Shown here in pieces: positions 6,185-25,558 of a stretch of 32,000 nt of DNA; the stretch's first letter is position 1; every line of letters starts with the position of its first letter. A model generated the notes under the pieces. The model did no database searches. It saw only the letters and a list, made by a program, of their open reading frames with translations, and had not been told where the DNA came from. This stretch comes from Bryobacterales bacterium (GTDB lineage Bacteria > Acidobacteriota > Terriglobia > Bryobacterales > Bryobacteraceae). Location of the stretch: contig CAWIKC010000004.1 of NCBI GenBank assembly GCA_963836595.1, positions 757,536 through 789,535 of the forward strand, read 5' to 3'. Made by a program: the position numbers and the translations under genes.

Positions 6185-6703
6185 TCACGTTCCCCGGTTT
6201 TGTCCCGCGAACCATGCATTGCTTTCGGGAAGCAGCAGCAGATAGACCGCATAACCACGCAGCGCGAGTTCGAGCAGCGAAACGATCGCGCCGGGGTTGG
6301 CATGCAGAACCAGCAACCGAAACCGAAACAGCAAATTAAAGGCCGTGTATGCGACCAGCAGGATAACGGCAATGCGGCCCACATTGCTGCCGCGCATGGT
6401 GAAAAAAATGGCGGCCACCCAGAGAATCGGGAACAGAAAGAGAGGTATGACGAGCCCGATTCCAAACGAGTGTAACCGGCCGATCAGCGCGATGAGGCTG
6501 ACGATCAAAGCGAGAATGCCGACGGCCACGCTCAGCCAAAGCAATGTCACGGCCCGGCGGACCGCCGCGGGCTGGGAAGCCACCGCGCTGGCCGGCGCCA
6601 TCTGCGCGGCAGGCGCGGAAGCAGCCAAAGTCAACGCTTCTCCACAGTTCGGGCAAGACGCCGCCCCCGGCTCGACCGCGGCAGCGCAGGCTGGACAAAA
6701 CAT
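6185..6703 (-). CDS. Zinc-ribbon domain membrane protein
   Basis: 172 aa. N-terminal CPAC...CPNC zinc-ribbon (MFCPACAAAVEPGAASCPNCG) followed by about four hydrophobic helices. Confidence 0.7.
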   Translation of the reverse strand: MFCPACAAAVEPGAASCPNCGEALTLAASAPAAQMAPASAVASQPAAVRRAVTLLWLSVAVGILALIVSLIALIGRLHSFGIGLVIPLFLFPILWVAAIFFTMRGSNVGRIAVILLVAYTAFNLLFRFRLLVLHANPGAIVSLLELALRGYAVYLLLLPESNAWFAGQNRGT

Positions 6704-6737
6704 AGCATCGCATTGTAACAGGTATTCTGGAGTTTAC

Positions 6738-10347: not shown

Positions 10348-11484
10348 CTATTGCTCGATGTTCTTCCCTTCCGAGAAGGTTTTTATCATCGCTTCCAGAT
10401 TCTTGCGATTGAGTTCGTCCGGCGCTTGCTTGGCCGCGATTTCGGCCTGCTCCCGCGCCTTTTGCAAATCGCCCTTATACGCATAGGTGCGCGCCAGTCC
10501 TACGTGCACCGGCCATGCATCGCCAAAACGCTGGGCATTGTACTGAAACACTTTGATCGCTTCTTCCGGCTTCTTCTCAGCCTGCAATTGCCGCCCATAG
10601 GTGTGGATTTCGACAGGCGTTGTCCCCGGCAGACGAAGCGCGGTTTGCATTATCTTCGCCGCTTCCTCCTCCCGGTTCAGCTTGGAGAGCACTAGCGCCT
10701 TGGTACTCAAGGTGGTGAAGTTCTCCTGGCCGACGAACTGCATGCCGACGGCGGCGTCCGCCCAAACCAGCGCCTGGTCTAAATGCGAGTTGGCCTGCAC
10801 GCAGAATTGAACCGCGTTGACGTACGCCTGGTAACTGAACCCGGTCATGCTGGTCAATTCCTGTTTCAAGTGCGAAACATAAATGTCATTGACGTTAGGA
10901 ACCTTCACCGTCCACGGCACGGCGAGATCTTCCCATTGCAGTTCGGCGGTGGCTTCTTCCGGCTTCCGAGAGCTGAATTCATAGGTCAGATACTCGCGAT
11001 AATCGTGCTTGTGAGGCTTAACATTGACTCGTAACGCATCGGCGCTTTCTTCGTAAAAGAAACTTCCCCAGGCGTTGGAGTCTTTGGAGAAAACAATCGT
11101 CCAGTCCTCCGGGCCCGGGATCATGAACAAACCGTACCGTCCCGCGGGCAGGTTCTTCCCCTCGATTTGCACATCGTTCGAAACCGAGAAGACCGTGTTC
11201 TCATTGGCGCCGGCCCGCCAGGGATCGGGCTTGCCGTTGCCGAAGCCGCCAAGCGTCGTCAACCCGTACGGCACCAACTTGCCCCAGATCTGGCCACGCC
11301 GGTCTTTACCGCCGGGGCCATGTACCGAAGGGCTGGAATATTCAATGTTGATCTGAACCGGTCCGACGTATTGGGTAACGGCGGCCTTTTGATTGTTACC
11401 GCTGGGAGGCAGCGTCAAACCCGTAAACTGGGCGAACACGGCCCCGGTGAAAACAAAGGGTAGAGAGACTTGAAGCAGTCGCAT
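10348..11484 (-). CDS. Secreted DUF2911 domain protein with C-terminal TPR repeats
   Basis: ATG 11484 gives the signal peptide MRLLQVSLPFVFTGAVFAQ. DUF2911 landmarks: SSPSVHG..GR..IWGKLVPYG, WRAGANENT, LPAGRYGLFMIP. The C-terminal half is TPR-like. The longer TTG-initiated ORF (11586) is rejected. Confidence 0.75.
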   Translation of the reverse strand: MRLLQVSLPFVFTGAVFAQFTGLTLPPSGNNQKAAVTQYVGPVQINIEYSSPSVHGPGGKDRRGQIWGKLVPYGLTTLGGFGNGKPDPWRAGANENTVFSVSNDVQIEGKNLPAGRYGLFMIPGPEDWTIVFSKDSNAWGSFFYEESADALRVNVKPHKHDYREYLTYEFSSRKPEEATAELQWEDLAVPWTVKVPNVNDIYVSHLKQELTSMTGFSYQAYVNAVQFCVQANSHLDQALVWADAAVGMQFVGQENFTTLSTKALVLSKLNREEEAAKIMQTALRLPGTTPVEIHTYGRQLQAEKKPEEAIKVFQYNAQRFGDAWPVHVGLARTYAYKGDLQKAREQAEIAAKQAPDELNRKNLEAMIKTFSEGKNIEQ

Positions 11485-11627
11485 GGTTTCTGAGTGACGA
11501 TTCAGCGCGTGGAAGGTGAGGAATATTCGTGCGGTTTGGCCCCGCACCGCGCTCCTCTGGCCCCTTTTCCTAAGTAGGCCAAACAAGATGAAAAGTGCTT
11601 CATTTGTAATCGGGTGCTGACTTTATG

Positions 11628-11641: not shown

Positions 11642-11989
11642 ATGAAACTCTCACGCTTGTTGTTGTGCGCCGCGGCGCTGGTTGCCGCTCTGACCATGAC
11701 CCCGGATATGCGGGCGCAGGCTCCCGCCGCCGCCCCGGCTAAGGCTCCAAAAGCTGCCGCAAAAGCCCCGCCCACGGATGCCGAGATCGCCGATGCCAAG
11801 ACCAAGGATTTGGTGTGGGTCAACACGAACACCAAGAAGTACCACAAGTCCGATGCGGCTCTCTATGGCAAGACCAAGCATGGGCAGTTTATGACTGAGG
11901 CCGATGCCGAAAAGGCTGGTTACAAGGCCGCACAGGAAACCGGCGGTAAGAAAGCCAAGAAGGCTACCAAGGCGACCGCCACGCAGTAG
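11642..11989 (+). CDS. Small secreted Ala/Lys-rich protein
   Basis: 115 aa. Signal peptide MKLSRLLLCAAALVAALTMTPDMRAQA, an APAAAPAKAPKAAAKAP linker, and a conserved-looking C-terminal block WVNTNTKKYHKSDAALYGKTKHGQFMTEADAEKAGYKAA. I recall that block in other small bacterial proteins of unknown function. Confidence 0.65.
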   Translation: MKLSRLLLCAAALVAALTMTPDMRAQAPAAAPAKAPKAAAKAPPTDAEIADAKTKDLVWVNTNTKKYHKSDAALYGKTKHGQFMTEADAEKAGYKAAQETGGKKAKKATKATATQ

Positions 11990-12037: not shown

Positions 12038-13036
12038 ATGCAAACGCCTGCTTTGGTCGCTAATGCCATGAGCACTAAGAAGATCATTCTCATTCGCCCG
12101 CGTGGGTTCTGTGCCGGGGTAGTGCGAGCGATTGATGTAGTCAAAATAGTACTGGACCTATACGGCGCTCCGGTCTATGTCCGCAAGGAAATTGTCCACA
12201 ATCGGCACGTTGTGGAACAATTGCGCCAGGCCGGTGCTGTGTTCGTCGAAGAACTATCCGAGGTACCGGAAGGCGCCCGAGTCATTTTCTCCGCGCACGG
12301 GGTTTCTCCCGAGGTTCGCCAAGAGGCAAAACTCCGCAATCTCCAGGTCATCGACGCCACTTGCCCGTTGGTGACGAAGGTTCATTTAGAAGCCACCCGT
12401 TTTGCTCGCGAAGGTTACACCATCGTTCTGATTGGACACTCCGGGCATGACGAGGTAATCGGAACCTTGGGTGAAGCGCCGGAATCCACGTTTCTGGTTT
12501 CGACCGTGGAAGATGCCGATCGGCTTGAGGTCAAAGACGCATCGCGAATGGCGTATCTGACGCAGACAACGCTGAGTCTGGATGAGACCAAAGACATTGT
12601 GCAGCGCCTCCGGGAGCGATTTCCCGCGATCCGCGGTCCCAAGACACAGGACATCTGTTATGCCACCGAAAACCGCCAGCTTGGCGTCAAAGCGGTGGCG
12701 CCTCTGTCCGACGTGCTCCTGGTAGTCGGTTCCCAGAACAGCTCTAATTCCCGCCGGCTGGTCGAGGTCTGCCAAATTGAAGGGGTTCCGGCGTATCTCC
12801 TGGATGACAGCAACGAGGTAAACCCGGAGTGGCTCGAGGGGAGAAGCACGGTCGCTGTGACGGCGGGCGCTTCGGCCCCTGAAAATCTGGTGCAGGAATT
12901 AATTTCACATCTGCAAGTCCGGTTTGGCTTCGGTCAGGTAGAAGAAATGGAATTAATCGAAGAAGACGTTCGCTTCCACCTTCCCTCCGATCTGGAGCGT
13001 TCGGCCATGAGGCTCACTACCATTGCGACAACCTAG
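12038..13036 (+). CDS. ispH: 4-hydroxy-3-methylbut-2-enyl diphosphate reductase
   Basis: Three [4Fe-4S] cysteine contexts (RGFCAGV, DATCPLV, DICYATENRQ) plus HNRHVV, GHSGHDEV and SSNSRRL. The alternative start ATG 12068 (MSTKKIILIRPRGFCAGV) fits the usual N-terminus better. Confidence 0.92.
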   Translation: MQTPALVANAMSTKKIILIRPRGFCAGVVRAIDVVKIVLDLYGAPVYVRKEIVHNRHVVEQLRQAGAVFVEELSEVPEGARVIFSAHGVSPEVRQEAKLRNLQVIDATCPLVTKVHLEATRFAREGYTIVLIGHSGHDEVIGTLGEAPESTFLVSTVEDADRLEVKDASRMAYLTQTTLSLDETKDIVQRLRERFPAIRGPKTQDICYATENRQLGVKAVAPLSDVLLVVGSQNSSNSRRLVEVCQIEGVPAYLLDDSNEVNPEWLEGRSTVAVTAGASAPENLVQELISHLQVRFGFGQVEEMELIEEDVRFHLPSDLERSAMRLTTIATT

Positions 13037-13048
13037 CCAAGCCCATGA

Positions 13049-13166
13049 GCACAGGCTAAAGCCTGTGCCACCTGGCATGATACAACCAATTCAACCGGAA
13101 GGCATTGCAAGGCTGTTTCGTGACGGGTACTTAGCCGCAGAAGGTGGCACAGGCTTTAGCCTGTGC
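13049..13166. repeat. Inverted pair of 24-nt palindromic REP units bracketing a 70-nt insert (MITE-like) in the ispH-shc spacer
   Basis: GCACAGGCTAAAGCCTGTGCCACC (13049-13072) and its exact reverse complement (13143-13166). Each unit is itself a 9-bp-stem hairpin. Confidence 0.85.
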
Positions 13167-13192
13167 AGTCCCCCCGCCAGCGAGGCGCAAGC

Positions 13193-15118
13193 ATGAGTGC
13201 CAGTTACCCGATCATGACATCGTTGAGCACGGCCGCGGCCATGGCTGCGGACCGGGCATCTCAGGCATTGTTGAAGATGCAGAGCCAAGCTGGCTTTTGG
13301 CAGGCTGAACTGACAGCGGACACCACCCTGGAGTCCGACTGGATCCTGCTCCAGCTCTGGCTGCATCCGCCGCAAAATGGCCTATGGAATCCTCCCAATC
13401 GGGAACTGGTGGACAAAGCAGTCCGTTCCATTGTGGCCCGTCAACTGCCCGACGGCGGATTCAACATATATCCCCAAGGCCCCGCTGAAGTCAACGCCAC
13501 GGTGAAGGCCTATTTCGCCCTGAAGCTGGCAGCCCTTCCCGAGACGGCGGAAGCTCTGGCTCGCGCTAAGGAACGCATACTCGCTCTGGGCGGCATTCAA
13601 GCGGCCAACAGTTACGTCAAGATCAACCTGAGCCTTTTCGATCTTTTCCCGCGCGAATACTGCCCCGCGATTCCGCCCGAAATCATGCTGCTGCCGGCCA
13701 ACTTCATCTACCAGATGTCATCCTGGACCCGGGCCATCGTCGTTTCGCTATCCATCGTCTATGCCCACCAGCCCCGGCGTCCGGTCCCGGCTGGGTTCGA
13801 TTTGCAGGAATTATTCCTGCCTGGTGTGACGCTTGGCTACCAGTTTGATAAAGCCGTTGTAACCTGGCGTAACTTCTACCTGGTTCTGGATCGCTGGGCC
13901 AAGTTGTGGGAACGGTTCGGATCGCAAGCCATCCGCCGGCATGCCATCAAGCTCGCGGAGAAGTGGGTTCTCGCGCGAACCGCCCATACCGACGGGCTCG
14001 CCGCGATTTACCCGCCCATGCAGTACGTCATTATGGCGCTGGATCTGCTGGGCTATGCTCCCGATCATCCGCAGCGCTTGGAAGCGCAGCGGGAATTCGA
14101 CGCGCTGATGGTCAACGATGCGGACCGCTTCTTCTTCCAGCCCTGTTTTTCCGTGGTGTGGGACACCGCGATCGCCGCCTACGCTTTGGGTGAATCGCCG
14201 CAACCGCCCCGGCAGGCTCTGCGCGAAGCCGCGGACTGGCTCTTGACCAAGGAAGTGCGCCACAAAGGGGACTGGTCCGTAAAGCGTCCCAAAACCCCGC
14301 CGTCAGGCTGGTATTTCGAATTTGCCAATGAGTTCTATCCCGACATCGACGACACCGGAATGGTGTTGCTGGCGCTCAGCAAGTCGAACGGATCGAACCC
14401 CGCCGAACAGCGAGCCTGTGTTCACCGCGCCATCGATTGGGTCCTTGCCATGCAATCGAAAGACGGCGGCTGGGCGGCTTTCGATGTAGACAACAATTGG
14501 AGTTCGCTGGCCGACGTTCCCTTTGCCGATCACAACGCCATGCTCGATCCCACTTGTCCCGATATCACCGGACGTGTGATGGAGGGCCTGATCGCCTGCG
14601 GCGTGGAGCGCTCCCATCCGGCCATCCGGCGAGCCGTCGCCTATCTCGTCCGCTCCCAGGAGCAGGACGGAAGCTGGTATGGGCGCTGGGGCGTCAATTA
14701 TGTCTATGGGACTTGTTTTGCCCTGCGTGGTCTGAAATCGGCTGGTATCGACGACCGGGAAGCCTATGTGCAGCGGGCGCTCGAGTGGGTGCGCGCCAAT
14801 CAGAACTTTGACGGTGGATGGGGCGAGAGTTGCGCCAGCTATGAGAAGAACCGGTTTGTGAGCGCCCCCAGCACTCCTTCTCAAACCGCGTGGGCGATTC
14901 TGGCCTTACTGGCCGGACAAGACACCACCAGTTCCAGTCTGCTGGATGGAATCGATTACCTGACGCGAACGCAGAAGCCGGATGGAACCTGGGACGAGGA
15001 ACTCGCCACCGGAACCGGCTTTCCGAAGGTTTTTTATCTCAGGTATCATCTTTACCGGAACTCGTTTCCTCTGCTGGCCTTGAATACATTTCAAAAGGCC
15101 GCGAGCCCGGAAGCCTGA
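13193..15118 (+). CDS. shc: Squalene-hopene cyclase
   Basis: Catalytic DxDD motif (YPDIDDTGMV), multiple QW repeats (QSKDGGW, QEQDGSWYGRWG, QNFDGGWGE, QKPDGTW) and C-terminal GTGFPKVFYLRYHLYR. ATG 13193 is preceded by GAGG. The GTG at 13163 lies inside the REP hairpin. Confidence 0.93.
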   Translation: MSASYPIMTSLSTAAAMAADRASQALLKMQSQAGFWQAELTADTTLESDWILLQLWLHPPQNGLWNPPNRELVDKAVRSIVARQLPDGGFNIYPQGPAEVNATVKAYFALKLAALPETAEALARAKERILALGGIQAANSYVKINLSLFDLFPREYCPAIPPEIMLLPANFIYQMSSWTRAIVVSLSIVYAHQPRRPVPAGFDLQELFLPGVTLGYQFDKAVVTWRNFYLVLDRWAKLWERFGSQAIRRHAIKLAEKWVLARTAHTDGLAAIYPPMQYVIMALDLLGYAPDHPQRLEAQREFDALMVNDADRFFFQPCFSVVWDTAIAAYALGESPQPPRQALREAADWLLTKEVRHKGDWSVKRPKTPPSGWYFEFANEFYPDIDDTGMVLLALSKSNGSNPAEQRACVHRAIDWVLAMQSKDGGWAAFDVDNNWSSLADVPFADHNAMLDPTCPDITGRVMEGLIACGVERSHPAIRRAVAYLVRSQEQDGSWYGRWGVNYVYGTCFALRGLKSAGIDDREAYVQRALEWVRANQNFDGGWGESCASYEKNRFVSAPSTPSQTAWAILALLAGQDTTSSSLLDGIDYLTRTQKPDGTWDEELATGTGFPKVFYLRYHLYRNSFPLLALNTFQKAASPEA

Positions 15119-15123
15119 GTCGC

Positions 15124-16101
15124 GTGAAGCCGACACTGGTAACCGGGGCAACCGGTTTTCTCGGCTGGCACGTGGCTCGCAAGTTGATCGAGCGCGGTCA
15201 CCGGGTCCGCGCCCTGGCCCGGCCAGGCAGCCGGGTGCGCGAGTTGGACGACGTTGAAGTCGTCGCCGGCGACCTGCGGGACGCCGAGTCGCTAGCGAGA
15301 GCCACCGCCGGTTGTGGACTCGTGTTTCATGTCGCGGCCGATTACCGCCTCTGGGTCAAGGATCCGGACGAGTTGTTCCGTTCGAACGTCGATGGGACTC
15401 GCAATATGCTGGAAGCCGCGCGCCAGGCCGGTGTGGAGCGGCTCGTCTACACCAGCACCGTCGGGTGCATTGGCATGCCCGGGGATCAACCGGGCAGCGA
15501 GGTCTTGCCGGTGGGTTTGGATGAAATGAGCGGACCTTACAAGCAGTCTAAGTTTCAAGCCGAGCAAGTGGCGATCGAGTTCGCTCAGCGCGGCTTCCCG
15601 GTAATTATCGTGAATCCTACCGCCCCCATTGGTGATCATGATTTTAAGCCCACGCCCACGGGCAAGATCGTGTTGGATTTTCTGAAAGGGGACTTGCCGG
15701 CTTTTGTGGACACCGGGCTCAATGTCGTCGACGCCGGCGACACCGCCGAAGGACATCTGTTGGCCTGCGAGCGCGGCAAGCCGGGCGAGCGCTACATTCT
15801 GGGTTGCGAGAATCTCACGTTGGAACAAATTCTCGTCCGTCTGGCTCTATTGAGTGGCAAGCCGGCGCCGCGCTGGCGCATCCCGTATCCGGTGGCCTAC
15901 CTGGCCAGCGTGGTTTCCACCGCGGTGGCGAACGTTACTGGCCACGAGCCGAGGGCGCCGCTCGATGCGGTGCGTATGGCTCGTAAGAAAATGTGGGTGT
16001 CGAGCGACAAGGCCCGTTCTGAGTTGGGGTTTGCGCCTGGTCCGGTAGACGAAGCACTGAAGCGCGCGGTCGCCTGGTTTCAGGCGAACGGCTATGTCTG
16101 A
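15124..16101 (+). CDS. hpnA: Hopanoid-associated NAD-dependent sugar epimerase/dehydratase-family protein
   Basis: GATGFLGWHV Rossmann motif, YKQSK (YxxxK), AADYRLW, KPTPTGK and PAFVDTGLNVVD match my memory of the HpnA family. GTG 15124 is 5 nt after the shc stop. The longer ORF from 14890 overlaps shc. Confidence 0.88.
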   Translation: MKPTLVTGATGFLGWHVARKLIERGHRVRALARPGSRVRELDDVEVVAGDLRDAESLARATAGCGLVFHVAADYRLWVKDPDELFRSNVDGTRNMLEAARQAGVERLVYTSTVGCIGMPGDQPGSEVLPVGLDEMSGPYKQSKFQAEQVAIEFAQRGFPVIIVNPTAPIGDHDFKPTPTGKIVLDFLKGDLPAFVDTGLNVVDAGDTAEGHLLACERGKPGERYILGCENLTLEQILVRLALLSGKPAPRWRIPYPVAYLASVVSTAVANVTGHEPRAPLDAVRMARKKMWVSSDKARSELGFAPGPVDEALKRAVAWFQANGYV

Positions 16102-16792
16102 GGGGCTGATTTTGTTTGTAGCGGCCGAAGCCCGCGAGTTTGTTGGATTCATGCAAAAGGTGGAAAAATCGGAGCGGCTCTCCTGGCCTGTGCAGTTCGC
16201 ACGGCGAGTGGAATATCGCGGAAGGGTAGCCGTGCTGGCGGCCAACGGTCCGGGATCGCAACTGGCCGGGCAAGCGGTATGCGCGGTAGCGGAGCGGGAA
16301 CCGGTCACATCTGTCGTTAGCACCGGGTTTTGCGGTGGACTGGATCCCACGCTCGCGCCTGGCGACATCTTCGTCGCGCGGGAACTGATCGGGCTCGGAC
16401 CAGTGGTTGCGCCCGAGCATCCTAAAGGGCGCGCCTCGACCGGCGCATTGATCTCGATCAACCGCGTGGCGGTTACCGTCGCTGAGAAAACGGAACTTCG
16501 CAAAGCCGGGGGCGATGCGGTGGAGATGGAAGCGGCTGGCGTCGCCGAGGCCGCTCAGCGCCTGTCCCTCCCGTTCTATTGCGTGCGCGTGGTCACGGAT
16601 ACGGCCGGCGAGAATCTGCCGCTCGATTTCAATCGCATGCGCGACGGCGAAGGCCGTTTCAGCCGGATGCATATCGTCGCCGCGGGTTTGCGCAACCCGG
16701 CAGTGGTTTTTCCGCAACTGATGAAGCTCAATGAACGTTGTAAAAGCGCGTCCAAAGCCTTGGGAGAATTCCTTGCCAACTGCCGCTTCTGA
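16094..16792 (+). CDS. hpnG: Hopanoid-associated phosphorylase/nucleosidase (adenosylhopane nucleosidase family)
   Basis: PNP_UDP_1-like landmarks STGFCGGL, GGDAVEMEAAGVA, VRVVTD. The start overlaps the hpnA stop (ATGTCTGA, 16094-16101). It sits in the canonical position beside shc/hpnA. Confidence 0.85.
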   Translation: MSEGLILFVAAEAREFVGFMQKVEKSERLSWPVQFARRVEYRGRVAVLAANGPGSQLAGQAVCAVAEREPVTSVVSTGFCGGLDPTLAPGDIFVARELIGLGPVVAPEHPKGRASTGALISINRVAVTVAEKTELRKAGGDAVEMEAAGVAEAAQRLSLPFYCVRVVTDTAGENLPLDFNRMRDGEGRFSRMHIVAAGLRNPAVVFPQLMKLNERCKSASKALGEFLANCRF

Positions 16793-16799
16793 AGTCACC

Positions 16800-17879
16800 A
16801 TGCAGGCCGCGGTTTATACCGGCAACGGCGCCATAGCCGTACAGGTGGTCCCGGTGCCCGAGATTGGGCGCGGCGAGATTCTGATCCGCGTCGAAGCCTG
16901 CGGCATTTGCCACACCGATCTCAAGAAAATCGAGTACGATCTGTTGCCGCCCCCACGCATCTACGGCCACGAAACCGCTGGAGTCGTGACCGCCGTGGGA
17001 GCGGGCGTCGCCAAGTATGCGCCTGGCGATCGCGTGATTGTGTTCCATCACATCCCCTGCATGCAATGCTTTTATTGCCGGCACAAACTGTATGCCCAAT
17101 GCGCGGTCTATAAGAAAGTAGGCGTCACGGCGGGCTATGAAGCCGCGGGCGGCGGATTTTCTCAGTATGTCCGGGTCATGGATTGGATCGTAGAGCGCGG
17201 CGTCGAGAAGATTCCCGCCGGCGTGTCGTTCGAACAGGCAAGTTTTGTCGAGCCGGTGAACACCTGCGTCAAGGCCATGGCGCAAATGGATTTCAAGCCC
17301 GGGGACGTGGCTGTCATCCTCGGACAAGGTCCCATCGGCTTGATTTTTACGATGCTGGGCAAGCGCGCTGGCGTCACCATGCTGGCGACCGACGGCATGC
17401 CGCATCGCCGGGAATTGGCGGTTCGCTTTGGCGTAGCGGCCGCCTTCGCGCCCAATGACGCCGCGCTCGAACAAACCATTGCCCAGACCACCGGCGGACG
17501 GGGCGCCGACGCGGTGATCGTGGCTGCATCCGCGCCGGGAATCGTCGAACAGGCGGTTCGCTACTCGCGGCCTGGCAGCCGGATTCTGCTGTTCGCGCAA
17601 ACCTCTCATAAAGAGCGCGTAGACTTGTCCGGCGCCGACATCTGCGTGGGCGAGAGGACGTTATTTGGCTCCTACAGCGCCTCCGTTGACCTGCAAAAGG
17701 AGTCCGCCGATCTCGTTTTCGGAGGAGAGTTGCCGGTTACGGAGTTGATCTCCCATCGTTTTTCTTTAGGAAAAATCCGACTCGGGATCGATCTAGCGTT
17801 GCATCCTGAGCCGCAATCCTTGAAAATAGTTATTAACCCGCAAGATACCAACGGGTGGGATGCTCACAGTGACAGGTAA
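16800..17879 (+). CDS. Zn-dependent alcohol/polyol dehydrogenase (MDR superfamily), copy 1
   Basis: ATG is 7 nt after the hpnG stop. Catalytic Zn context GICHTD / GHETAG / EPVNTC, structural Zn cluster CMQCFYCRHKLYAQC, GQGPIG nucleotide fold followed by ...MLATDG. Confidence 0.85.
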   Translation: MQAAVYTGNGAIAVQVVPVPEIGRGEILIRVEACGICHTDLKKIEYDLLPPPRIYGHETAGVVTAVGAGVAKYAPGDRVIVFHHIPCMQCFYCRHKLYAQCAVYKKVGVTAGYEAAGGGFSQYVRVMDWIVERGVEKIPAGVSFEQASFVEPVNTCVKAMAQMDFKPGDVAVILGQGPIGLIFTMLGKRAGVTMLATDGMPHRRELAVRFGVAAAFAPNDAALEQTIAQTTGGRGADAVIVAASAPGIVEQAVRYSRPGSRILLFAQTSHKERVDLSGADICVGERTLFGSYSASVDLQKESADLVFGGELPVTELISHRFSLGKIRLGIDLALHPEPQSLKIVINPQDTNGWDAHSDR

Positions 17880-17880
17880 C

Positions 17881-18909
17881 ATGACGGCCGCAGTGCTCTA
17901 CGGCAAAGAGCATGTGCGGATTGAAACGGTACCAGTACCTCAGGTCGGACCCAACGACGTACTGGTGCGCGTCAAGACGGCTCTCACTTGCGGCACGGAC
18001 GTCAAGGTGTTCCGCCGTGGGTATCACGCCCGCATGATCGTTCCTCCGGCGCTATTCGGACACGAACTTGCCGGGGACATTGTGGCGCTCGGCACGGCCG
18101 TGAGCAAATTCCACATTGGCCAGCGCGTAGTGGCGGCCAATTCGGCGCCCTGTGGCGAGTGCTTTTTTTGCCAGCGCGGTAGCGAGAACCTGTGCGACGA
18201 TCTGCTGTTCAACAACGGCGCCTATGCGGAATATATCCGCATTCCTGGCCGAATCGTCGAGCGCAATTTGTATGAGATTCCGGCGCATCTGGATTACCGG
18301 GCCGCTGCCTTAGTCGAACCGCTGGCCTGCGTCGTGAGAGGGCTGGACGAAACAAAAATTCAATGTGGCGACAATCTTGTCATCATGGGCTTGGGCCCGA
18401 TCGGGTCGATGTTCGTTCGCCTGGGGCAAGTTTATGGAGCGCGCGTGATTGCGGTTGGCCGCCGCAAATCGCAACTGGATCGCGCCCGCAAACTGGGCGC
18501 GGCCGAATGCGTTCTTTCCGATGGGGTCAATGACGCGCTGGCGGACGTGAAACAGTTGACCGGGGGGCGTGGCGCCGACGTGGTGATTGAAGCGGTCGGG
18601 CTGCCGGAAACCTGGGAGTTAGCGGTTCGCATGCTGCGCCGGGGAGGTACAGTCAATTTCTTCGGAGGCTGTCCCAGCGACAGCCAGGTCGCGATCGATA
18701 CCCAGCTTCTGCATTATTCCGAACTCACCTGTATGGCCACGTTCCATCACACGCCCAAACATATTCGCAAGGCGCTCGAACTCGTGAGTAGCGGCCAGAT
18801 TACCGCTGGAGATTTTATCAATCGCGAGGAACCGCTCACGAACTTGCTGGAGGTGATGCACCACCTCATGAGCCACAACGGCCATTTAAAAACGGCTATC
18901 ATCCCCTAG
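17881..18909 (+). CDS. Zn-dependent alcohol/polyol dehydrogenase (MDR superfamily), copy 2
   Basis: ATG is 1 nt after the previous stop. TCGTD / GHELAG / EPLAC, structural Zn cluster CGECFFCQRGSENLC, GLGPIG nucleotide fold followed by ...IAVGRRKS (basic, NADP-type by analogy). Confidence 0.85.
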   Translation: MTAAVLYGKEHVRIETVPVPQVGPNDVLVRVKTALTCGTDVKVFRRGYHARMIVPPALFGHELAGDIVALGTAVSKFHIGQRVVAANSAPCGECFFCQRGSENLCDDLLFNNGAYAEYIRIPGRIVERNLYEIPAHLDYRAAALVEPLACVVRGLDETKIQCGDNLVIMGLGPIGSMFVRLGQVYGARVIAVGRRKSQLDRARKLGAAECVLSDGVNDALADVKQLTGGRGADVVIEAVGLPETWELAVRMLRRGGTVNFFGGCPSDSQVAIDTQLLHYSELTCMATFHHTPKHIRKALELVSSGQITAGDFINREEPLTNLLEVMHHLMSHNGHLKTAIIP

Positions 18910-19116
18910 CCCAACCAACACTGTTCACTTAACAGATTAAACGGGCCGACGGCTCTTTTCGACCCGGAGGAAATCGGATTCGACTTCCCAGAAATGCCGG
19001 AGCAGGCGGAAGAGTTGAGATTGGGGCGGCATTCGCGACGATCTTGGTCAATTAAGCCGTCAGGGTGGAGCCCGAAGTGCATTCCCCTACGTGCTTCAGG
19101 AAAATAAGCTGGAGTG

Positions 19117-19188
19117 ATATATCTCTCTCCGGTGTCGGCCCGTCGCGCGGGACGCGTGGACCCTATTACGGCCTTGCGAACCAAATAA
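19117..19188 (+). pseudogene. 3'-terminal remnant of an ADOP/FtsX-type permease gene
   Basis: Translates to IYLSPVSARRAGRVDPITALRTK*, against ...NYLPARRAGRVDPITALRTE* at the end of the intact permease (22380). The downstream TGTGACA motif is also shared. An in-frame stop lies immediately upstream. Confidence 0.6.
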
Positions 19189-19223
19189 CGTTGTGACAAA
19201 AAACCACTATCAGCGAAACTCTT

Positions 19224-19502
19224 ATGAACGAAACAACGAGCTATCCATACGAAACGCGTTTAAACATTCACTACCAACAGGGCGAAGTGATCGACGAGCG
19301 GGCGCTCGCCGACGCCTGCGCCTACAAGTGGTATAACCAAACGCTTGGCCAAGTGAACGAATCGGTGGTTCGCCTGGGCGTAGTACAAGGCGAGTATCAC
19401 TGGCACAAGCACGACGATGACGACGAGTTTTTCTACGTGGTCGAGGGAAAGCTGCTGGTCGACCTGCACGACCGCGCGGCCGAACTCGCGCCACGACAGT
19501 AG
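19224..19502 (+). CDS. Small cupin-fold protein, probably 3'-truncated by a frameshift
   Basis: GEYHWHKHDDDDEFFYVVEGKLLVDL is a cupin motif-1 region. The ORF stops at ELAPRQ*, where cupins normally continue. A shifted frame downstream reads VDQVSVPRRPAHH, resembling the missing VPRGxxH strand. Confidence 0.45.
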   Translation: MNETTSYPYETRLNIHYQQGEVIDERALADACAYKWYNQTLGQVNESVVRLGVVQGEYHWHKHDDDDEFFYVVEGKLLVDLHDRAAELAPRQ

Positions 19503-19893
19503 AGTTGACCAAGTATCTGTACCCCGGAGGCCAGCTCACCATTGAATCCCGCTGTTGATGGCATGACCAAGAGGCTGGCATCCCTACCGGGGTGCGGAAC
19601 TTTGATTTCGATTTCCTGTGGTGTCGCAAACTGCGCTCCACCACCGGCTACACGCGGCGATCCCTCCGGGATGAAAAAGCGGCCACGTGCTAGCTTATCT
19701 TAATGCCTATTAAGGTAGGCAGAATGCCCACCCGCTCGTCCACTGGCACTGTCCGATCCCGAAACATGCCATCCCGGCAATGGACATCACCACAAGCGCT
19801 TGACGCATCTCGATCCCCTAAAATCACCGATTAGCCGGAGGCAACGAAGGAACCCAACTTGCATCCCAAGGATACTTGTCCCTGGGAGGCCCC

Positions 19894-22380
19894 ATGAATC
19901 TCTGGCAAGACGTCCGCTTCGCGTTGAGAACCATGTGGAAGTCGCCGCGCATCACCGCGACGGTGTTGCTCACCTTGGCGCTCGGGATCGGCGCCAATAC
20001 CGCGATCTTCAGTGTCGTGAACGCGACCCTTTTCCGGCCCCTCCCGTTTCATGATCCGGAGCAATTGGTCGTATTGCACGCCGATCTGCGAGGGCTGGGC
20101 GCAAATAGCGTCGGCTTTTCCGTTCCGGAGCTCGACGACCTGCGGGATCGCGCCGGCGTTTTCTCGGCGGTCTCGGCTGTATATCAAGGGCCGGGCAACT
20201 TGACCGGCGGTGAGCATCCCGAGCGACTGGAGAGTGGGGTGGTCAGTCCCAATTATTTCAGTATTCTCGGGGCGCGCCCGCAACTCGGCCGCCTGTTCGA
20301 CCCCGGCGACACCGCGCCAGGATTCGGCGATGCCGTGGTGATCACCGATGGCCTGTGGCGCCGCGAGTTCGGAGGAGAACGCTCCGTCCTCGGCCATCGA
20401 ATGCGGCTCGATACCGATCTGTACACCATCGTGGGCGTACTTCCGCCGGACTTTCGGAATCCCTCATCGGCTGGCGCTGTTCCGGTGGAAGTATACGTCA
20501 CTGCGGGATTTCGCGGGGATCCGTTTCCGCCGCCGCAACGTAGCGCGCGATTTTTGCCGGGCATCATCGGCCGGTTGAAACCGGGGATGACGCTCGCCCA
20601 GGCCCAGGCCAAGCTGGCCACCTTCAGTGATTCGCTGCGCCGGGACTATGGCAGCGATTATCCGGCCGGCGCAGGCTGGACGCTTTCCGTGACTCCGTTG
20701 AAGGAAGTCGTGGTCGGCAACACGCGGACGCTGCTGATTTCGCTCTTGCTGGCGGTGGCGTTCATTCTGTTGATCGCCTGCGTGAATGTAGCGAATCTTC
20801 TGTTAGCCAGCGCGTCGGCGCGGCAGCGGGAGATCGCCGTGCGCCTGGCGTTGGGCGCGAGCCGCGCGAGAATTGTCCGGCAACTGCTCACCGAATCGGC
20901 AGTCCTGAGTCTCTTTTCGGCGGCGGCCGGCGTCGCCGCTGCGACGCTCGGTTTGCAGTCGCTGATCGCCATGTTGCCGTCGCAACTTCCGCGCCTCAAC
21001 GACATTCATGTCGATGCGGGCGTGCTGGCGTTTTCTCTCACGCTCTCCTTGCTCACCACCGTGCTCTTCGGACTGGTGCTGGCGTTCCAAGCCGGAAAGG
21101 TGGAACCATCGCTTTCCGGATTGCGCGAGCGCGGCAGTTCCGGATCGCGGCACGACAGCAAAGTCCGCCAGGTGCTCATTGGCGCGGAAGTCGCATTGTC
21201 GTTGATGCTTTTGGTCGGCGCGGGGGTGTTGCTGCGGACGATCTGGAATCTTCTGCAAGTGAATCCGGGGTTCAACTCGCAGCATTTGGTCGCGGGAAGC
21301 GTTTCGTTGCCGGTGCCCAATGACCCCAAGGCAGACATTTACGACAAGCTCGAAACGCGCACCGCACTCGTTCGTGAGACGGTGCGGCGCCTTCGCGCCC
21401 TGCCGGGCGTGGAGAACGCGGCGTTGTCCAGCGTGGTACCCCTGCAGGGCGCGCTGCGGCAAAACGGATACCGCGTGGAAGGCGCCCCCGAAAGCGGCGA
21501 CGCTCCCACAGCGGTTCCCGTATCCGTGACGCCCGAATTCTTTCGGACCATCGGCGCGCCGCTGGTTCGGGGACGGGTGATTCAGGATACGGATGACAAG
21601 CAATCACGCTTGGTCGTGCTGGTCGATGAGACCGCGGCGCGCCATTTCTGGGGCGCGCAGGATCCCCTTGGAAAGCGGATTCGTTCCGCGCGCAACACCC
21701 GCAGGGGCATCGTGCAGCCGGCGCCTTGGTTTACGGTGGTGGGCGTGGTCGGCAACGTGAAGTTGGCCAGCTTGGATGAAAAGGATGTTCCGCACGTTTA
21801 CACCAGCCTGTACCAGACGGCTGGGTACCAGACGCCTGGAAGGCTGATGGGCGTACTGGTTCGCGGCACGGGAGACCGCGCCATGCTCAGCCGTGCCGTG
21901 CCGCGCGAAATTCAGTCGGTGGATCCTAACTTACCGGTATCGCCGATCGTCGAAATGACCGAACTGATGCGCGCCGGCGTCGGCGATCGCCGCTTCGCGG
22001 CCTCGTTGCTGGCGTGCTTCGCCGTGGTAGCGCTATTGCTGATGAGTATCGGAGTGTACGGCGTAGCGTCGTATGCGATTGTGCGCCGCGAAAAGGAAAT
22101 CAGCATTCGCTCCGCGTTGGGAGCCACGCGCGGCCAATTGGTGCAAATGGTTTTGCGCGAGGGCATGGTTCCGATTCTGGCGGGGCTAGCGGTGGGAGCG
22201 GCCGGCGCCGCGCTTTCCGGCCATCTGCTAGCTACGTTGCTGTTCGAAGTGCGCTCCACCGACGCGAGCGTCTTCGCGGCGGCGGGAGTCACGCTGGTGG
22301 CGATCGGCATTCTGGCCAACTATCTGCCGGCCCGTCGCGCAGGACGCGTGGACCCGATTACGGCCTTGCGAACTGAATAA
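19894..22380 (+). CDS. ADOP-family duplicated orphan permease (MacB-like, two FtsX modules, no adjacent ATPase)
   Basis: N-terminus MNLWQDVRFALRTMWKSPRITATVLLTLALGIGANTAIFSVVNA. Two FtsX-type modules (..QREIAVRLALGASRARIV.. and ..EKEISIRSALGATRGQLV..), each after a large periplasmic segment. C-terminus YLPARRAGRVDPITALRTE. No ABC ATPase gene is in the window. Confidence 0.88.
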   Translation: MNLWQDVRFALRTMWKSPRITATVLLTLALGIGANTAIFSVVNATLFRPLPFHDPEQLVVLHADLRGLGANSVGFSVPELDDLRDRAGVFSAVSAVYQGPGNLTGGEHPERLESGVVSPNYFSILGARPQLGRLFDPGDTAPGFGDAVVITDGLWRREFGGERSVLGHRMRLDTDLYTIVGVLPPDFRNPSSAGAVPVEVYVTAGFRGDPFPPPQRSARFLPGIIGRLKPGMTLAQAQAKLATFSDSLRRDYGSDYPAGAGWTLSVTPLKEVVVGNTRTLLISLLLAVAFILLIACVNVANLLLASASARQREIAVRLALGASRARIVRQLLTESAVLSLFSAAAGVAAATLGLQSLIAMLPSQLPRLNDIHVDAGVLAFSLTLSLLTTVLFGLVLAFQAGKVEPSLSGLRERGSSGSRHDSKVRQVLIGAEVALSLMLLVGAGVLLRTIWNLLQVNPGFNSQHLVAGSVSLPVPNDPKADIYDKLETRTALVRETVRRLRALPGVENAALSSVVPLQGALRQNGYRVEGAPESGDAPTAVPVSVTPEFFRTIGAPLVRGRVIQDTDDKQSRLVVLVDETAARHFWGAQDPLGKRIRSARNTRRGIVQPAPWFTVVGVVGNVKLASLDEKDVPHVYTSLYQTAGYQTPGRLMGVLVRGTGDRAMLSRAVPREIQSVDPNLPVSPIVEMTELMRAGVGDRRFAASLLACFAVVALLLMSIGVYGVASYAIVRREKEISIRSALGATRGQLVQMVLREGMVPILAGLAVGAAGAALSGHLLATLLFEVRSTDASVFAAAGVTLVAIGILANYLPARRAGRVDPITALRTE

Positions 22381-22401
22381 GGATGTGACACAACATCCCT
22401 C

Positions 22402-22642
22402 AGGATCGTGCTGGCACCGGGCGCGCTGACGATCGCAATCGGTGTCGGCGCGGGACCGCTCGGCTCCGCGGCATTGACCAGGTTCCTTGGCGACGACAAT
22501 GCTCTTCGAGATTGCGCCGACGGACCCGATCATCTTCTGCGCCCTGGCGACGCTGCTGGACGGAGTTGCCGTGCTGGCGTGCCTGGCCCGCGTCCTGCGC
22601 GCCACACGCGTGGACCCGCTCGTTGCTTTGCGGCATGAATGA
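22402..22642 (+). pseudogene. 3' fragment of a second ADOP/FtsX permease with an internal frameshift
   Basis: Frame 1 reads ..IVLAPGALTIAIGVGAGPLGSAALTRFLGDD. After a +1 shift at ~22498 it reads MLFEIAPTDPIIFCALATLLDGVAVLACLARVLRATRVDPLVALRHE* (stop 22640-22642). This is the last TM hairpin and tail of an FtsX module, starting only ~20 nt after the intact gene. Confidence 0.7.
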
Positions 22643-23010
22643 CAAGAGCATGCGAAAAACAGTTTTGTTGTGGATGGGGATTTTGCAGATGGCCAATGGA
22701 CAGTCCGCGATCGGCAAGGCGAATGCCGAGCACTACACGCGGGGACAACGCTGTGACGGATGGTATTTCGTCAAGGATGACGAGATGACCGTGATCGAAG
22801 AAAGGATGCCGCCGGGAACCGCGGAAACCCTGCAGGTGCATGCCAAGTCGCGGCAGTTTTTCTACATCGCGGCTACTTTCAGCAATTTCCACAGGTGGAG
22901 GAGTCCGTTGAAGCTGTCCTTGTTGCCACGAGAGCGATTCCGATAGCCTTCTCATATGAGCGGCCTTCCTTTCCGAAAGCATCGCGATTCCTACCCGCAC
23001 GCCGAAAGTC
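22635..23010 (+). pseudogene. Cupin-fold gene, frameshifted
   Basis: ANAEHYTRGQRCDGWYFVKDDEMTVIEERMPPGTAETLQVHAKSRQFFYI matches a cupin family I recognise. After ~22870 the reading frame loses similarity. A shifted frame (..VEESVEAVLVATRAIPIA..ASRFL..) weakly continues the fold, but the motif-2 His is not evident. Confidence 0.5.
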
Positions 23011-23031
23011 CTGAACGACCAGCTCCGAAAC

Positions 23032-23484
23032 TTGCCGAAGCCGTGGGTTCACAGCAAGGATGATCCTGAACACTGGAGTCCGTTCGATTGCGGCGGACAC
23101 CTCATCCACGGCGAAAAGACCGATTGGAAGCCGCGCGTGAACATCATTCTCAAGCACAGACCCGCCGTCGCGTTCACGCCCTTCGATCGCTTCGCACAGC
23201 TCCGAGACAGCCAGGGGAAGGCGATCGTTGATTTGCTGGGCGAATTTGCGAATCTTCGCGCGAGCAACCTCAGTGATCTGCGACGCCTGCGACTGACTCG
23301 CTCTCAATTGGACCTCGCAGGCACGCACCGTGCCTTTGGCATCGTGACATTGCGCCAACGTCTCGCTACGCGGACGGTGCACGACCTGAACCACCTGAAC
23401 CAGATCAATCGCATGATGGCGGGACGCTACATGACGGAAGTCGGTCCCTGGTCGGCGTATCTTTCGATTCCTCGGCGTTCCTGA
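23032..23484 (+). CDS. DinB-family (DinB_2-like) metal-dependent protein, N-terminus possibly shortened
   Basis: WSPFDCGGHLIHGEKTDWKPRVNIIL ... FDRFAQL ... TVHDLNHLNQINRMMA ... GPWSAYL matches the four-helix DinB pattern. Only a TTG start is available; the in-frame upstream sequence back to 22960 has no ATG. Confidence 0.65.
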   Translation: MPKPWVHSKDDPEHWSPFDCGGHLIHGEKTDWKPRVNIILKHRPAVAFTPFDRFAQLRDSQGKAIVDLLGEFANLRASNLSDLRRLRLTRSQLDLAGTHRAFGIVTLRQRLATRTVHDLNHLNQINRMMAGRYMTEVGPWSAYLSIPRRS

Positions 23485-24640
23485 GACTAACGAAAAATCC
23501 ATAGGGACTTTCCGCCGGGCAACGGCGACGCATTCCTCCATTTCAAGGGTCATCCGACAGCGCGATCCTGACCCGGGCACGATGGCTCCTCCTCGGTTCC
23601 GGCCCATGCCCGTGCATCATAGCGAGCGCACAGATCCTTAAGATTATTGAGTTTCAGTCCCTCGATGACAGGGCGTGGATTTCAGCGAGCGAGCGAGCCG
23701 GAATGCGAATCAGTTCCGGCCAGAGAGGAAGTTCAACACTTGAGCATCCGACGCATAACCGGCAAAAATGTATCGGACTGACCTCCGGCACGGCGATCTG
23801 GGGTTGGTGGGGCAGGTAATGTAACGCGGGGACTGCAGGCTTGGTCTCTTTTCTAGAACCGCGAATCGGAGACCTACAAATCAATCGCTCCCCCCTGCAT
23901 TGCGCGGACAGCCACCCTCACGAGTGATCGGGCCACAGGCGAGGCTTAGTGGCTTAGCGCATCATTTGACGGTCGAGGATGGGAGCCGGCGCTTGATGAT
24001 TGCCGCGTTGCGATACGAAGGACAAGTTCGTGAAGGTCAACGGAACGGGACTATTCGAGCCGAGCGACTGCTTTACGTCGACTGGCTGGAGGAGCGTTCA
24101 CTGTCAGCTAATCCCACTGTGGTGACACCGAGTGACGGGTTCCTCGCTCCCGCCATCCGCGCCGATGGAAGAAATGTCGCCGCCGGCCGCGTCATTCTTC
24201 GCTGTAAAGAAGATTCGCGTAAACGCCGCGACCACAAGGGGAGGTACTTGCTGAGCCCGCCGCTGGTCATGCCCGAAAATACTTCGTGCTCCAGATATTA
24301 AGGGCTAACCGGACAACTGGCGCCAAAGCCTCTCGCCGCTCGACCATACAGACAAAGGTTCCGGTGGCGATTCTCAGAAGCCCGTTGTGAGTGACAGTGT
24401 CCTTTATCATTCACTTCCCGGAAACAGCTCGGTCTGCGCGCCGTGGACCGTCAGGAAAAGGATGACATCTGGATTCCTGGTCCCGCTTCCGACCGGGCCA
24501 GAAGCCAGAAAAGGCGATTCTGGGAGACGCTCCCGTGCTTGAGCTTAAGTGAACCATATTGCCCCAAGCCCCTAACGTCAGTGAGGAAGCAAGTAAGGCT
24601 CCCTCGCGGACCAGATCTCTAGCCGGTTATCCTAAAGCAA

Positions 24641-25558
24641 GTGCCTGCCGCCGTTCCCCAACTCGCCCCCAAGGACTTCGTTCAATCGGAAACTGCTCTC
24701 GGCGACGTCTACACTCCCGCCCAGGCGGAAGCCTACACCCGCTGGCTGGCTACCCGGCACTATGAAAATTTTCACGTAGTGACCTTCCTGCTGCCCAAAA
24801 AGCTGCACCAGGACTTCTATAACGTCTACTCTTTTTGCCGCTGGGCCGACGATCTGGGTGATGAGATCGGCGACAAGGAAGAGAGTCTGCGTCTGCTCGG
24901 TTGGTGGCGCCGGCAATTGCATGCCATGTACGCGGGCAGCTCCGCTGGCCATCCGGTTTTCACCGCGTTGCAAGGAACCTCCGAGCGCCACAAGCTTCCG
25001 CAAAGTCTGTTCGACGACCTGATTTCCGCCTTTGAGCACGATCAGCGCGTGAGCCGGTACCGGAATTGGGAAGAGGTATTCGACTATTGCCGCTGCTCCG
25101 CCAATCCGGTCGGCCGGCTGGTGCTGCGGCTATGCGGCTACGCCGATGACGAACGCGACCGGCTGTCTGACGCGACGTGCACCGCATTGCAGTTAGCGAA
25201 TTTCTGGCAGGATGTGACCGTCGATCTGGAAAAGGACCGGATTTACCTGCCGCTCGATTTGCTCAAGCGGCATGGGTGCTCCGTGGACGATGTGACTGCG
25301 CGCCGATTTTCGCCGGGCTTTGCCGCGGCCGTAAAAGACGCGGTTGAAGTAGCGCGCGATCTGTTTCACCAAGGGCTGCCGCTGGTCAAAACCGTCGATA
25401 GACGGTTATCTTTTGATCTGGCGCTGTTCAGCCGGGGAGGCTTGCGGATTTTAGACAAAATCGAGCGGCAAGGCTACGATGTTCTGCGCGCCCGTCCGCG
25501 CATCTCGAAAGTCGAGCGCGTAGGCCTCTTGCTCGGCAGCTTGTGGAGTCTGCGCTAA
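24641..25558 (+). CDS. hpnC: Hydroxysqualene synthase (squalene synthase HpnC)
   Basis: HYENFHVVTFLLP, YSFCRWADDLGDE (first Asp-rich motif), FWQDVTVDLEKDRIYLP. GTG start at 24641 (no upstream ATG in frame). Confidence 0.85.
   Translation: MPAAVPQLAPKDFVQSETALGDVYTPAQAEAYTRWLATRHYENFHVVTFLLPKKLHQDFYNVYSFCRWADDLGDEIGDKEESLRLLGWWRRQLHAMYAGSSAGHPVFTALQGTSERHKLPQSLFDDLISAFEHDQRVSRYRNWEEVFDYCRCSANPVGRLVLRLCGYADDERDRLSDATCTALQLANFWQDVTVDLEKDRIYLPLDLLKRHGCSVDDVTARRFSPGFAAAVKDAVEVARDLFHQGLPLVKTVDRRLSFDLALFSRGGLRILDKIERQGYDVLRARPRISKVERVGLLLGSLWSLR

Follow-up and report, generated by a model that had tools for sequence, protein, structure and literature searches.

What do two dehydrogenase genes do inside a hopanoid gene cluster? 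The question is raised by a 32,000-nt stretch of DNA from a Bryobacterales bacterium (contig CAWIKC010000004.1 of assembly GCA_963836595.1, positions 757,536 to 789,535), hereafter the window, in which the genes for two zinc-dependent alcohol dehydrogenases of the medium-chain dehydrogenase/reductase (MDR) superfamily, ADH-1 and ADH-2, directly follow shc, hpnA and hpnG. An earlier note on this DNA had proposed, from their coupling to hpnG, that they reduce ribosylhopane to bacteriohopanetetrol (BHT), a step that it took to have no assigned gene. We found that ADH-1 followed by ADH-2 is an ancient, near-obligate two-gene module and a fixed component of the acidobacterial hopanoid cluster, and we consider it likely that the pair has a function in hopanoid or other isoprenoid-lipid metabolism.

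Direct sequence reading and profile searches gave the gene order ispH-shc-hpnA-hpnG-ADH1-ADH2 in the window (Table 1). The tight packing described before, with successive gaps of 5, −8, 7 and 1 nt from shc to ADH-2, was borne out at every junction. The shc stop codon (TGA, 15116-15118) precedes the GTG start of hpnA at 15124 by 5 nt; hpnG starts (ATG, 16094) ahead of the hpnA stop (16099-16101), giving an overlap of 8 nt, ATGTCTGA (16094-16101); the hpnG stop (16790-16792) and the ADH-1 ATG (16800) are 7 nt apart; and a single nucleotide separates the ADH-1 TAA (17877-17879) from the ADH-2 ATG (17881). The database copy of ADH-2 (P0121, 349 amino acids (aa), 100% identical) starts at ATG 17860, which results in an overlap of 20 nt; the Met at 17881 is kept among ADH-2 homologues, and the packing is tight under either start. 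A promoter and terminator scan to delimit the operon returned nothing above shuffled expectation, and the sole match of an Rfam scan was one tRNA, with none in the cluster region.

Both genes had been described before, ADH-1 as ug1 and ADH-2 as ug2, by Sinninghe Damsté et al. 2017 (Front Microbiol 8:968, PMC5462960), whose Table S1 lists ug1 as a Zn-dependent alcohol dehydrogenase of ca. 370 aa and ug2 as a Zn-binding alcohol dehydrogenase of ca. 350 aa, both with the function 'not established'. That study described, for Acidobacteria of subdivisions 1 and 3 (SD1/SD3), a 'cluster C' with ug1 after hpnA-hpnG and a 'cluster A' with ug2 before hpnC-hpnD-hpnE, and found ug1 and ug2 in every SD1/SD3 acidobacterium that produces bacteriohopanepolyols (BHPs), including strains that lack hpnC and hpnE. 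Our genes agree with this definition in size (359 and 342-349 aa) and, across 160 loci, in position; in the window, hpnC is displaced by a 5.7-kb insert. The counterpart of the hpnG-like gene was handled as hpnG in the same study (PMC5462960). In our searches this gene scored below the curated HpnG cut-off (TIGR03468), HpnG still being its top-scoring family, and it overlaps hpnA.

A genome scan with one genome per species returned at least 579 genomes with a relative of ADH-1, and we examined synteny in the best 80 of them (L001-080), all of which belong to Bryobacterales, Terriglobia or Acidobacteriaceae. The order ispH-shc-[hpnH]-hpnA-hpnG-ADH1-ADH2-hpnC-hpnD was present in every genome among these 80 with enough flanking sequence. 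A metagenome scan added 80 further loci (L091-170), in which ADH-1 was only 48-55% identical, the downstream order was ADH1-ADH2-hpnC-hpnD-hpnE and the upstream order usually ispH-shc-[hpnH]-hpnA-[hpnG]; almost all related loci had ispH ahead of shc. Homologues of both ADHs at ≥73% identity numbered in the thousands in soil metagenomes, and no orthologue was found on annotated plasmids, where the top match was 33% identical. The pair thus sits inside hpn clusters, between the side-chain genes (hpnH, hpnA and hpnG) and the squalene genes (hpnC, hpnD and hpnE), in ∼160 acidobacterial loci, and since the gene order recurs in so many related loci, it must reflect more than chance. The linkage to hpn genes in other genomes, which the earlier note had named as a test, is therefore strong.

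The three junctions of the pair differed in how constant they were. ADH-2 followed ADH-1 directly in 142 of the 147 loci that could be judged (74/77 genomes, 61/61 metagenome loci and 7/9 distant lineages). Downstream, hpnC or hpnD lay within 1.5 kb of ADH-2 in 119 of 122 (70/70, 46/47 and 3/5, respectively). Upstream, hpnA or hpnG lay within 1.5 kb of ADH-1 in 106 of 124, a linkage that is strong in Terriglobia and Bryobacterales (71/71 genomes, 35/49 metagenome loci), and absent from the distant lineages (0/4); C. thermophilum and alphaproteobacterial clusters lack the pair itself. Intergenic distances, all approximate, were ∼31 nt from hpnG to ADH-1, ∼0 nt from ADH-1 to ADH-2 and ∼1 nt from ADH-2 to hpnC in Bryobacterales-type loci, and ∼123, ∼5 and ∼155 nt in a second set, the ADH-1/ADH-2 junction always being the tightest.

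The genes also differed in conservation: across Bryobacterales and Terriglobia, ADH-1 and ADH-2 were 66-77% conserved in loci where hpnG was 34-56% conserved. Judged by such identities, the hpnG-like gene evolves by far the fastest of all cluster genes and the adjacent ADHs are the most conserved. Compared with its counterparts in the second locus set, the hpnG-like gene was 26-36% identical.

The pair is also found beyond Acidobacteriota, in an Armatimonadota metagenome-assembled genome (MAG) and in several unassigned lineages. Searching representatives clustered at 50% identity, we recovered full-length ADH-1-type proteins at 39-49% identity, whose downstream partners were 46-60% identical to ADH-2 and 26-33% to ADH-1; by these identities, every downstream partner is a true ADH-2 orthologue. 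When ADH-1 was clustered at 60% identity, 13 lineages resulted, ten of them with an ADH-2 partner. Among the nine paired lineages with a judgeable downstream side, six adjoin hpnC/D and only three, plus L081 (hpnA-hpnG-ADH1-ADH2), adjoin hpnA/G. In the Armatimonadota MAG (L085/86; GCA_028871815.1), a threonine-aldolase-like gene followed by ADH1-ADH2-hpnC-hpnD-hpnE occurred with no shc, hpnG, hpnH or hpnA within ±10 kb. Further arrangements were ADH1-ADH2-hpnC-hpnD (L084), ADH1-ADH2-methyltransferase-hpnC-hpnD-hpnE in forest soil (L174) and ispH-HpnA-ADH1-ADH2-HpnD-PNP, with a purine nucleoside phosphorylase (PNP)-type gene at its end (L173). QueF-ADH1-ADH2 ran into a contig end (L082), two ADH pairs had no hpn genes (L088, marine, and L089), and ADH-1-like genes were solitary in a cyanobacterial locus (L087) and in L172. 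Whereas ug1 and ug2 had been split over clusters C and A (PMC5462960), they appear here as one nearly inseparable pair, also outside Acidobacteriota.

Two distant loci deserve closer description. In a Vicinamibacteria MAG (GCA_016934575.1; L171, 3320-12113), the pair is accompanied by genes for a polyprenyl synthase of 489 aa, for a lycopene-cyclase-domain protein and for an HpnN-like transporter, an MMPL protein fused to a LolA-like domain with weak HpnN similarity; squalene-synthase (SQS_PSY) and hopanoid genes were absent within 10 kb. In L090 (76-4236), the 602-aa protein P0257 joins a sugar-phosphate nucleotidyltransferase (NTP-transferase) to an ADH-1-type MDR; its flanking genes encode a CDP-alcohol phosphatidyltransferase and an amidotransferase of the asparagine-synthase type. 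To judge from its gene content, this locus looks like one that makes and transfers a CDP-activated polyol. The fusion to a nucleotidyltransferase and the neighbouring CDP-alcohol phosphatidyltransferase suggest a polyol-phosphate substrate for P0257.

Such neighbourhoods would suit a pair that neither forms BHT nor takes part in a squalene step, and instead, co-regulated with the hopanoid genes, has a lineage-specific tailoring or accessory role in some other feature of isoprenoid lipids, such as a polyol or cyclitol head group or an undescribed acidobacterial hopanoid modification. The distribution is limited to Acidobacteriota, Armatimonadota and a few unassigned lineages, model BHT producers lack the pair, and the terpenoid neighbours in L171, the distant nucleotidyltransferase-fused relative and the methyltransferase between the pair and hpnC in L174 point the same way. 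However, the documented acidobacterial BHPs are only tetra- and some penta-functionalised after Rohmer degradation (PMC5462960), none of them needing such chemistry, and the 66-77% conservation suggests a core function over an optional decoration. We therefore regard this explanation as fairly improbable.

We then asked what the proteins themselves reveal. Both carry PF08240 and PF00107 above the gathering scores (88 and 61 bits in ADH-1, 89 and 91 bits in ADH-2). The predicted catalytic Zn ligands are C34/H57/E58(/E151) in ADH-1 and C37/H61/E62(/E146) in ADH-2, and the predicted structural Zn cysteines are C87/C90/C93/C101 and C91/C94/C97/C105; these positions are invariant or ≥90% conserved within the two families, and the third ligand is of the E-P type in both. 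The dinucleotide motif GxGxxG reads G175-x-G177-x-x-G180 in ADH-1 and G170-x-G172-x-x-G175 in ADH-2, and strand β2 ends in LATD198G and AVG193-R-R-K-S, respectively. The ligands and motifs were thus all found where the earlier note had placed them. All 31 members of the ADH-1 family that we examined have D or E at the D198 position. G193-R194-R195 is invariant among close ADH-2 homologues, and the β2 end is G/V-[RK]-R in most ADH-2 orthologues (Acidobacteria, Armatimonadota, L173 and L174).

In MDR enzymes, an acidic residue ending β2 as a rule indicates NAD(H). Because ADH-1 has such a residue and ADH-2 has Gly-Arg-Arg at this position, we infer that ADH-1 would use NAD(H) and ADH-2 NADP(H). 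In the distant ADH-2 orthologues of L084 (3037-4083), L089 (3606-4706) and L088 (6654-7685), GRR is swapped for Glu/Asp (NAD-type) or GGND, so the cofactor preference of ADH-2 may have switched between lineages.

ADH-1 and ADH-2 are only 30% identical to each other and therefore old paralogues. ADH-2 carries a CGTD motif like that of L-threonine 3-dehydrogenase (TDH) and polyol dehydrogenases. ADH-1-type proteins are distinguished by a family-specific insert at about residues 102-120 (YKKVGVTAGYEAAGGGF) behind the structural-zinc lobe, of the form YKxxGTTAGFEPxGGGF, and by a GSYSxS motif; both are missing in ADH-2 and generic MDRs. The AlphaFold2 model of ADH-1 (predicted local distance difference test score, pLDDT, 95.1) superposed on many MDR structures with template modelling (TM) scores of 0.81-0.85 at 20-29% identity, so the fold indicates an MDR and is silent on the substrate. 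The ADH-2 model was poor (pLDDT 67) because its alignment was shallow, and we left it out of the fold comparison.

Could the two simply be ordinary soluble sugar, polyol or amino-alcohol dehydrogenases that remain in a hopanoid operon only by inherited gene order? The automatic JGI label of their homologues is L-iditol 2-dehydrogenase. Pairs without hpn neighbours (L088, L089 and L082) and solitary ADH-1-like genes in unrelated contexts (L087 and L172) would also agree with such a role. However, neither protein reached any NCBIfam equivalog cut-off, those for threonine, galactitol-1-phosphate, idonate and inosose dehydrogenases included. The top-scoring families were IolM (142 bits for ADH-1 and 168 for ADH-2; cut-off 450), TDH (TIGR00692 and NF003808: 142 and 141 bits for ADH-1, 163 and 160 for ADH-2; cut-offs 458 and 380), GatD (104 and 100; cut-off 550) and IdnD (65 and 102; cut-off 469). 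Human and insect sorbitol dehydrogenase structures matched at only ∼98-116 bits. The top solved-structure match of both was an MDR from S. meliloti that is itself uncharacterised (4EJ6; 124 and 151 bits), and the nearest solved structures were just 20-29% identical. Furthermore, the gene order survives ADH-1 divergence to 48-55% identity, the hpnCDE link recurs in a second phylum, and SQS_PSY linkage in six of nine paired lineages is far above that of random neighbourhoods. We consequently rejected a housekeeping identity, which the earlier note had named as a refuting outcome, and consider retention by gene order alone very unlikely.

The pathway gap that had been invoked was still there in November 2025, when a survey by the same group stated that the enzyme for ribosylhopane to BHT was not established (PMC12583986). 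In 2017, hpnA rather than ug1 or ug2 was proposed for this step; HpnA is reported to be dispensable for BHT in Burkholderia and absent from Rhodopseudomonas (PMC5462960). A cell-free reduction of ribosylhopane is attributed to Bodlenner 2015 in the survey (PMC12583986). A 2026 review draws the step as non-enzymatic, and the ADH genes go unmentioned in a 2025/26 preprint on hopanoid microsynteny. The gap is thus real, and the genes were known before; their putative assignment to it is new.

How could the pair act? We infer that ADH-1 and ADH-2 cooperate, joined in a heteromer or acting one after the other, on a polyhydroxylated pathway intermediate, because both are similar to dehydrogenases of polyols, threonine and inosose, and the ribose-derived C5 side chain is the sole polyol that the pathway contains. 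For the latter reason, and because the combination of an NADP-type with an NAD-type enzyme is reminiscent of the pairs in polyol pathways or redox epimerases, we prefer a redox role on the hopanoid side chain, without going so far as to call it probable. ADH-2 with NADPH would reduce the carbonyl of ring-opened ribosylhopane to give BHT, and ADH-1 with NAD+ would oxidise a side-chain carbinol to a keto or epimeric derivative or to a lactone; alternatively, ADH-1 could be a partner subunit. The cell-free activity of Bodlenner reportedly requires NADPH. In its most explicit form, this proposal makes the pair the missing ribosylhopane-to-BHT system of Acidobacteria, which may be an NADPH/NAD+ 'polyol pathway' on lipid-bound ribose and may also give keto or epimeric BHT derivatives; we think this rather unlikely. 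That the pair is specifically a ribosylhopane-to-BHT reductase is possible, not specifically supported, and on the unlikely side. We also considered and set aside an alternative source of 1-deoxy-D-xylulose 5-phosphate (DXP) from 5-deoxyribose, for which the stereochemistry is unfit, a substrate-cycle transhydrogenase, and hydride delivery to HpnC.

Several observations weigh against a ribosylhopane reductase. The most constant neighbour of the pair is hpnC/hpnD, not hpnG/hpnA, and its coupling to hpnG is no tighter than that to hpnC. In eight of the 14 metagenome loci without hpnA/G upstream (L101, L103, L112, L128, L141, L144, L151 and L167), the cluster is rearranged, with ADH1-ADH2-hpnCDE unbroken wherever the sequence extends far enough; seven of the eight have the ispH/shc block inverted upstream, in most cases with hpnA along. 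The Armatimonadota, L084 and L174 loci combine the pair with hpnCD(E) and no hpnA, hpnG, hpnH or shc in the sequence seen, the L088 and L089 pairs have no hpn neighbours, and that of the Vicinamibacteria MAG stands beside other terpenoid genes. The NADP-type site of ADH-2 is replaced by D/E in L084 and L089, and a single reduction does not call for two enzymes. Among BHT producers, C. thermophilum, which forms both BHT and BHT cyclitol ether, has no ug2 (PMC5462960), and alphaproteobacterial hpn clusters have neither the ADH pair nor other obvious candidates nearby (PMC12583986). Luteitalea, a cultured SD6 member, has hpnCDE without shc, hpnH or hpnG (PMC5462960). Coupling to hpnG, the specific argument of the earlier note, does not hold up, as in most related genomes ADH-2 abuts hpnC equally tightly (median 1 nt versus 31 nt from hpnG to ADH-1). 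The candidacy itself survives in part: linkage to hpn genes and the lack of a matching housekeeping family speak for it, whereas the coupling to hpnG proved unspecific and the pair is missing from C. thermophilum and alphaproteobacterial clusters.

Much of this would fit a role in the squalene module, in which the pair acts on a squalene-stage intermediate (hydroxysqualene, or prenyl alcohol/aldehyde redox) or supports the HpnE reduction, its adjacency to hpnG being incidental. The near-constant presence of hpnC/D within 1.5 kb past ADH-2, the median distance of ∼1 nt in Bryobacterales-type genomes, the persistence of the pair with hpnCDE when clusters are inverted or split, and the ADH1-ADH2-hpnC-hpnD(-hpnE) loci of Armatimonadota, L084 and L174 without nearby side-chain genes all agree with it. 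So does the pair in Vicinamibacteria, a class whose cultured member has hpnCDE and no shc or hpnH/G, although the locus found there has no SQS_PSY gene within 10 kb. On the other hand, HpnC, HpnD and HpnE suffice for squalene formation when placed in E. coli (Pan et al. 2015, cited after PMC5462960), and therefore no squalene step lacks an enzyme. Moreover, ug2 is present in all SD1/SD3 strains, those without hpnC and hpnE too (PMC5462960), both ADHs resemble dehydrogenases of hydrophilic, vicinally substituted polyol or amino-alcohol substrates rather than hydrocarbons, and we found no chemically sensible function for them at this stage. A squalene role thus seems unlikely to us, and the side-chain role remains our preferred reading.

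Known systems offer partial parallels. The polyol pathway and the fungal xylose reductase-xylitol dehydrogenase couple likewise pair an NADP-type with an NAD-type oxidoreductase on a sugar-derived polyol, as predicted for the ADHs, and their sorbitol and xylitol dehydrogenases belong to the MDR zinc enzymes and have Glu as the third ligand, as in both ADHs. However, the aldose reductases of these pathways are aldo-keto reductases with free-sugar substrates, whereas ADH-2 is an MDR. In CDP-ribitol synthesis by TarJ/TarI, an MDR ribulose-5-phosphate reductase works with a cytidylyltransferase, so that an MDR zinc reductase makes the ribitol moiety. The BHT side chain is formally a 5-substituted ribitol, and the ADHs may resemble TarJ. 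P0257 (39% identical to ADH-1), fused as it is to an NTP-transferase by a CDP-alcohol phosphatidyltransferase, recalls that system and has neither an ADH-2 partner nor hpn context; unlike in TarJ/TarI, there is no nucleotidyltransferase in the window. TDH and the S. meliloti MDR (4EJ6/4EJM), the best sequence and structure matches, have the fold and both zinc sites in common with the ADHs. TDH also shares a CGTDV motif with ADH-2, but identity is 20-29% and no kbl partner gene lies at the ADHs. HpnA is likewise an NAD(P)-dependent oxidoreductase of the same operon and was earlier proposed for this very step (PMC5462960); unlike the MDR ADHs, it belongs to the extended short-chain dehydrogenase/reductase (SDR) superfamily.

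The window is an atypical representative of these clusters in two respects, the absence of hpnH from its usual site and a 5.7-kb insert between ADH-2 and hpnC. No hpnH lies between shc and hpnA (15118-15124), and it must therefore sit elsewhere in this genome; in 47 of the 80 related genome loci, a 1.1-kb hpnH occupies this site (for example L004, 7044-8150; TIGR03470, 420 bits). Because hpnC/D lies within 1.5 kb after ADH-2 in 116 of 117 judgeable related loci, the 5.7-kb stretch appears to have been inserted into the cluster in this lineage specifically. It contains an ADOP permease, a hallmark of Acidobacteria. Near Bryobacterales-type clusters, we found no hpnE match within ±10 kb. Past hpnD, a GHMP-family sugar kinase (HddA-like) and a sugar-1-phosphate nucleotidyltransferase (MurU/HddC-like) occur in L001-L006, L009 and L054 (L004, 13995-15846); we rejected them as members of the system, as they are limited to a small subclade (7-8 of 80 loci).

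Table 1. Hopanoid cluster genes and other annotated features of the window
Feature	Coordinates	Strand	Evidence
DUF2911 + TPR protein	10348-11586	-	
Small 'sunset domain' protein, just upstream of ispH	11642-11989		
ispH (HMBPP reductase), first gene of conserved block	12038-13036	+	NF002189, 460 bits, above cut-off
shc, squalene-hopene cyclase	13163-15118	+	TIGR01507, 636 bits; PF13243, PF13249
hpnA, hopanoid-associated SDR 'sugar epimerase', GTG start	15124-16101	+	TIGR03466, 457 bits, cut-off 368
hpnG-like, PNP/nucleosidase family	16094-16792	+	PF01048; TIGR03468 best match, 123.8 bits, below cut-off 187.1
ADH-1 (= ug1), MDR Zn-dependent dehydrogenase, 359 aa	16800-17879	+	PF08240 + PF00107
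ADH-2 (= ug2), MDR Zn-dependent dehydrogenase, 342 aa (alternative start 17860)	17881-18909	+	PF08240 + PF00107
Interruption between ADH-2 and hpnC, 5.7 kb	18910-24640	.	ADOP permease, DinB-like open reading frame (ORF), unassigned ORFs
ADOP-family duplicated permease	19876-22380	+	TIGR03434, 861 bits
DinB-like ORF	23032-23484	+	DinB_2
hpnC (hydroxysqualene synthase)	24641-25558	+	TIGR03464, 344 bits, above cut-off
hpnD-like (presqualene diphosphate synthase)	25563-26432	+	TIGR03465 best match, 245 bits, slightly below cut-off 279
tRNA gene	29168-29238	-	

Elsewhere in the window, a 690-aa ORF (2502-4574) has an AtuA (acyclic terpene utilisation) domain in its C-terminal 440 residues (491 bits); its N-terminal ∼247 residues have no Pfam match, and the listed TTG start may be too far upstream. 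Similarly, a bifunctional ribBA ORF (6297-7817) has ∼147 extra N-terminal residues ahead of the RibB match, and translation probably begins further downstream than the listed TTG. An ORF on the minus strand (41-1282) with weak similarity to IS481/IS3 transposases (47 and 37 bits, far under the cut-offs) is possibly a degraded insertion sequence at the window's edge.

Compared with the published record, what is new here is the near-obligate and ancient pairing, its extension beyond Acidobacteriota, the primary linkage to hpnC/D and the lack of a match to any characterised family. That the evolutionary anchor of the pair is the squalene module cautions against assigning function from hpnG adjacency alone. 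BHPs, which are major membrane lipids, are the source of the geohopanes, and these are the most abundant molecular fossils; Acidobacteria are among the most abundant soil bacteria. For a core-pathway step that has no gene, the conversion of ribosylhopane to BHT, the ADH pair provides a clearly delimited, testable two-gene candidate.

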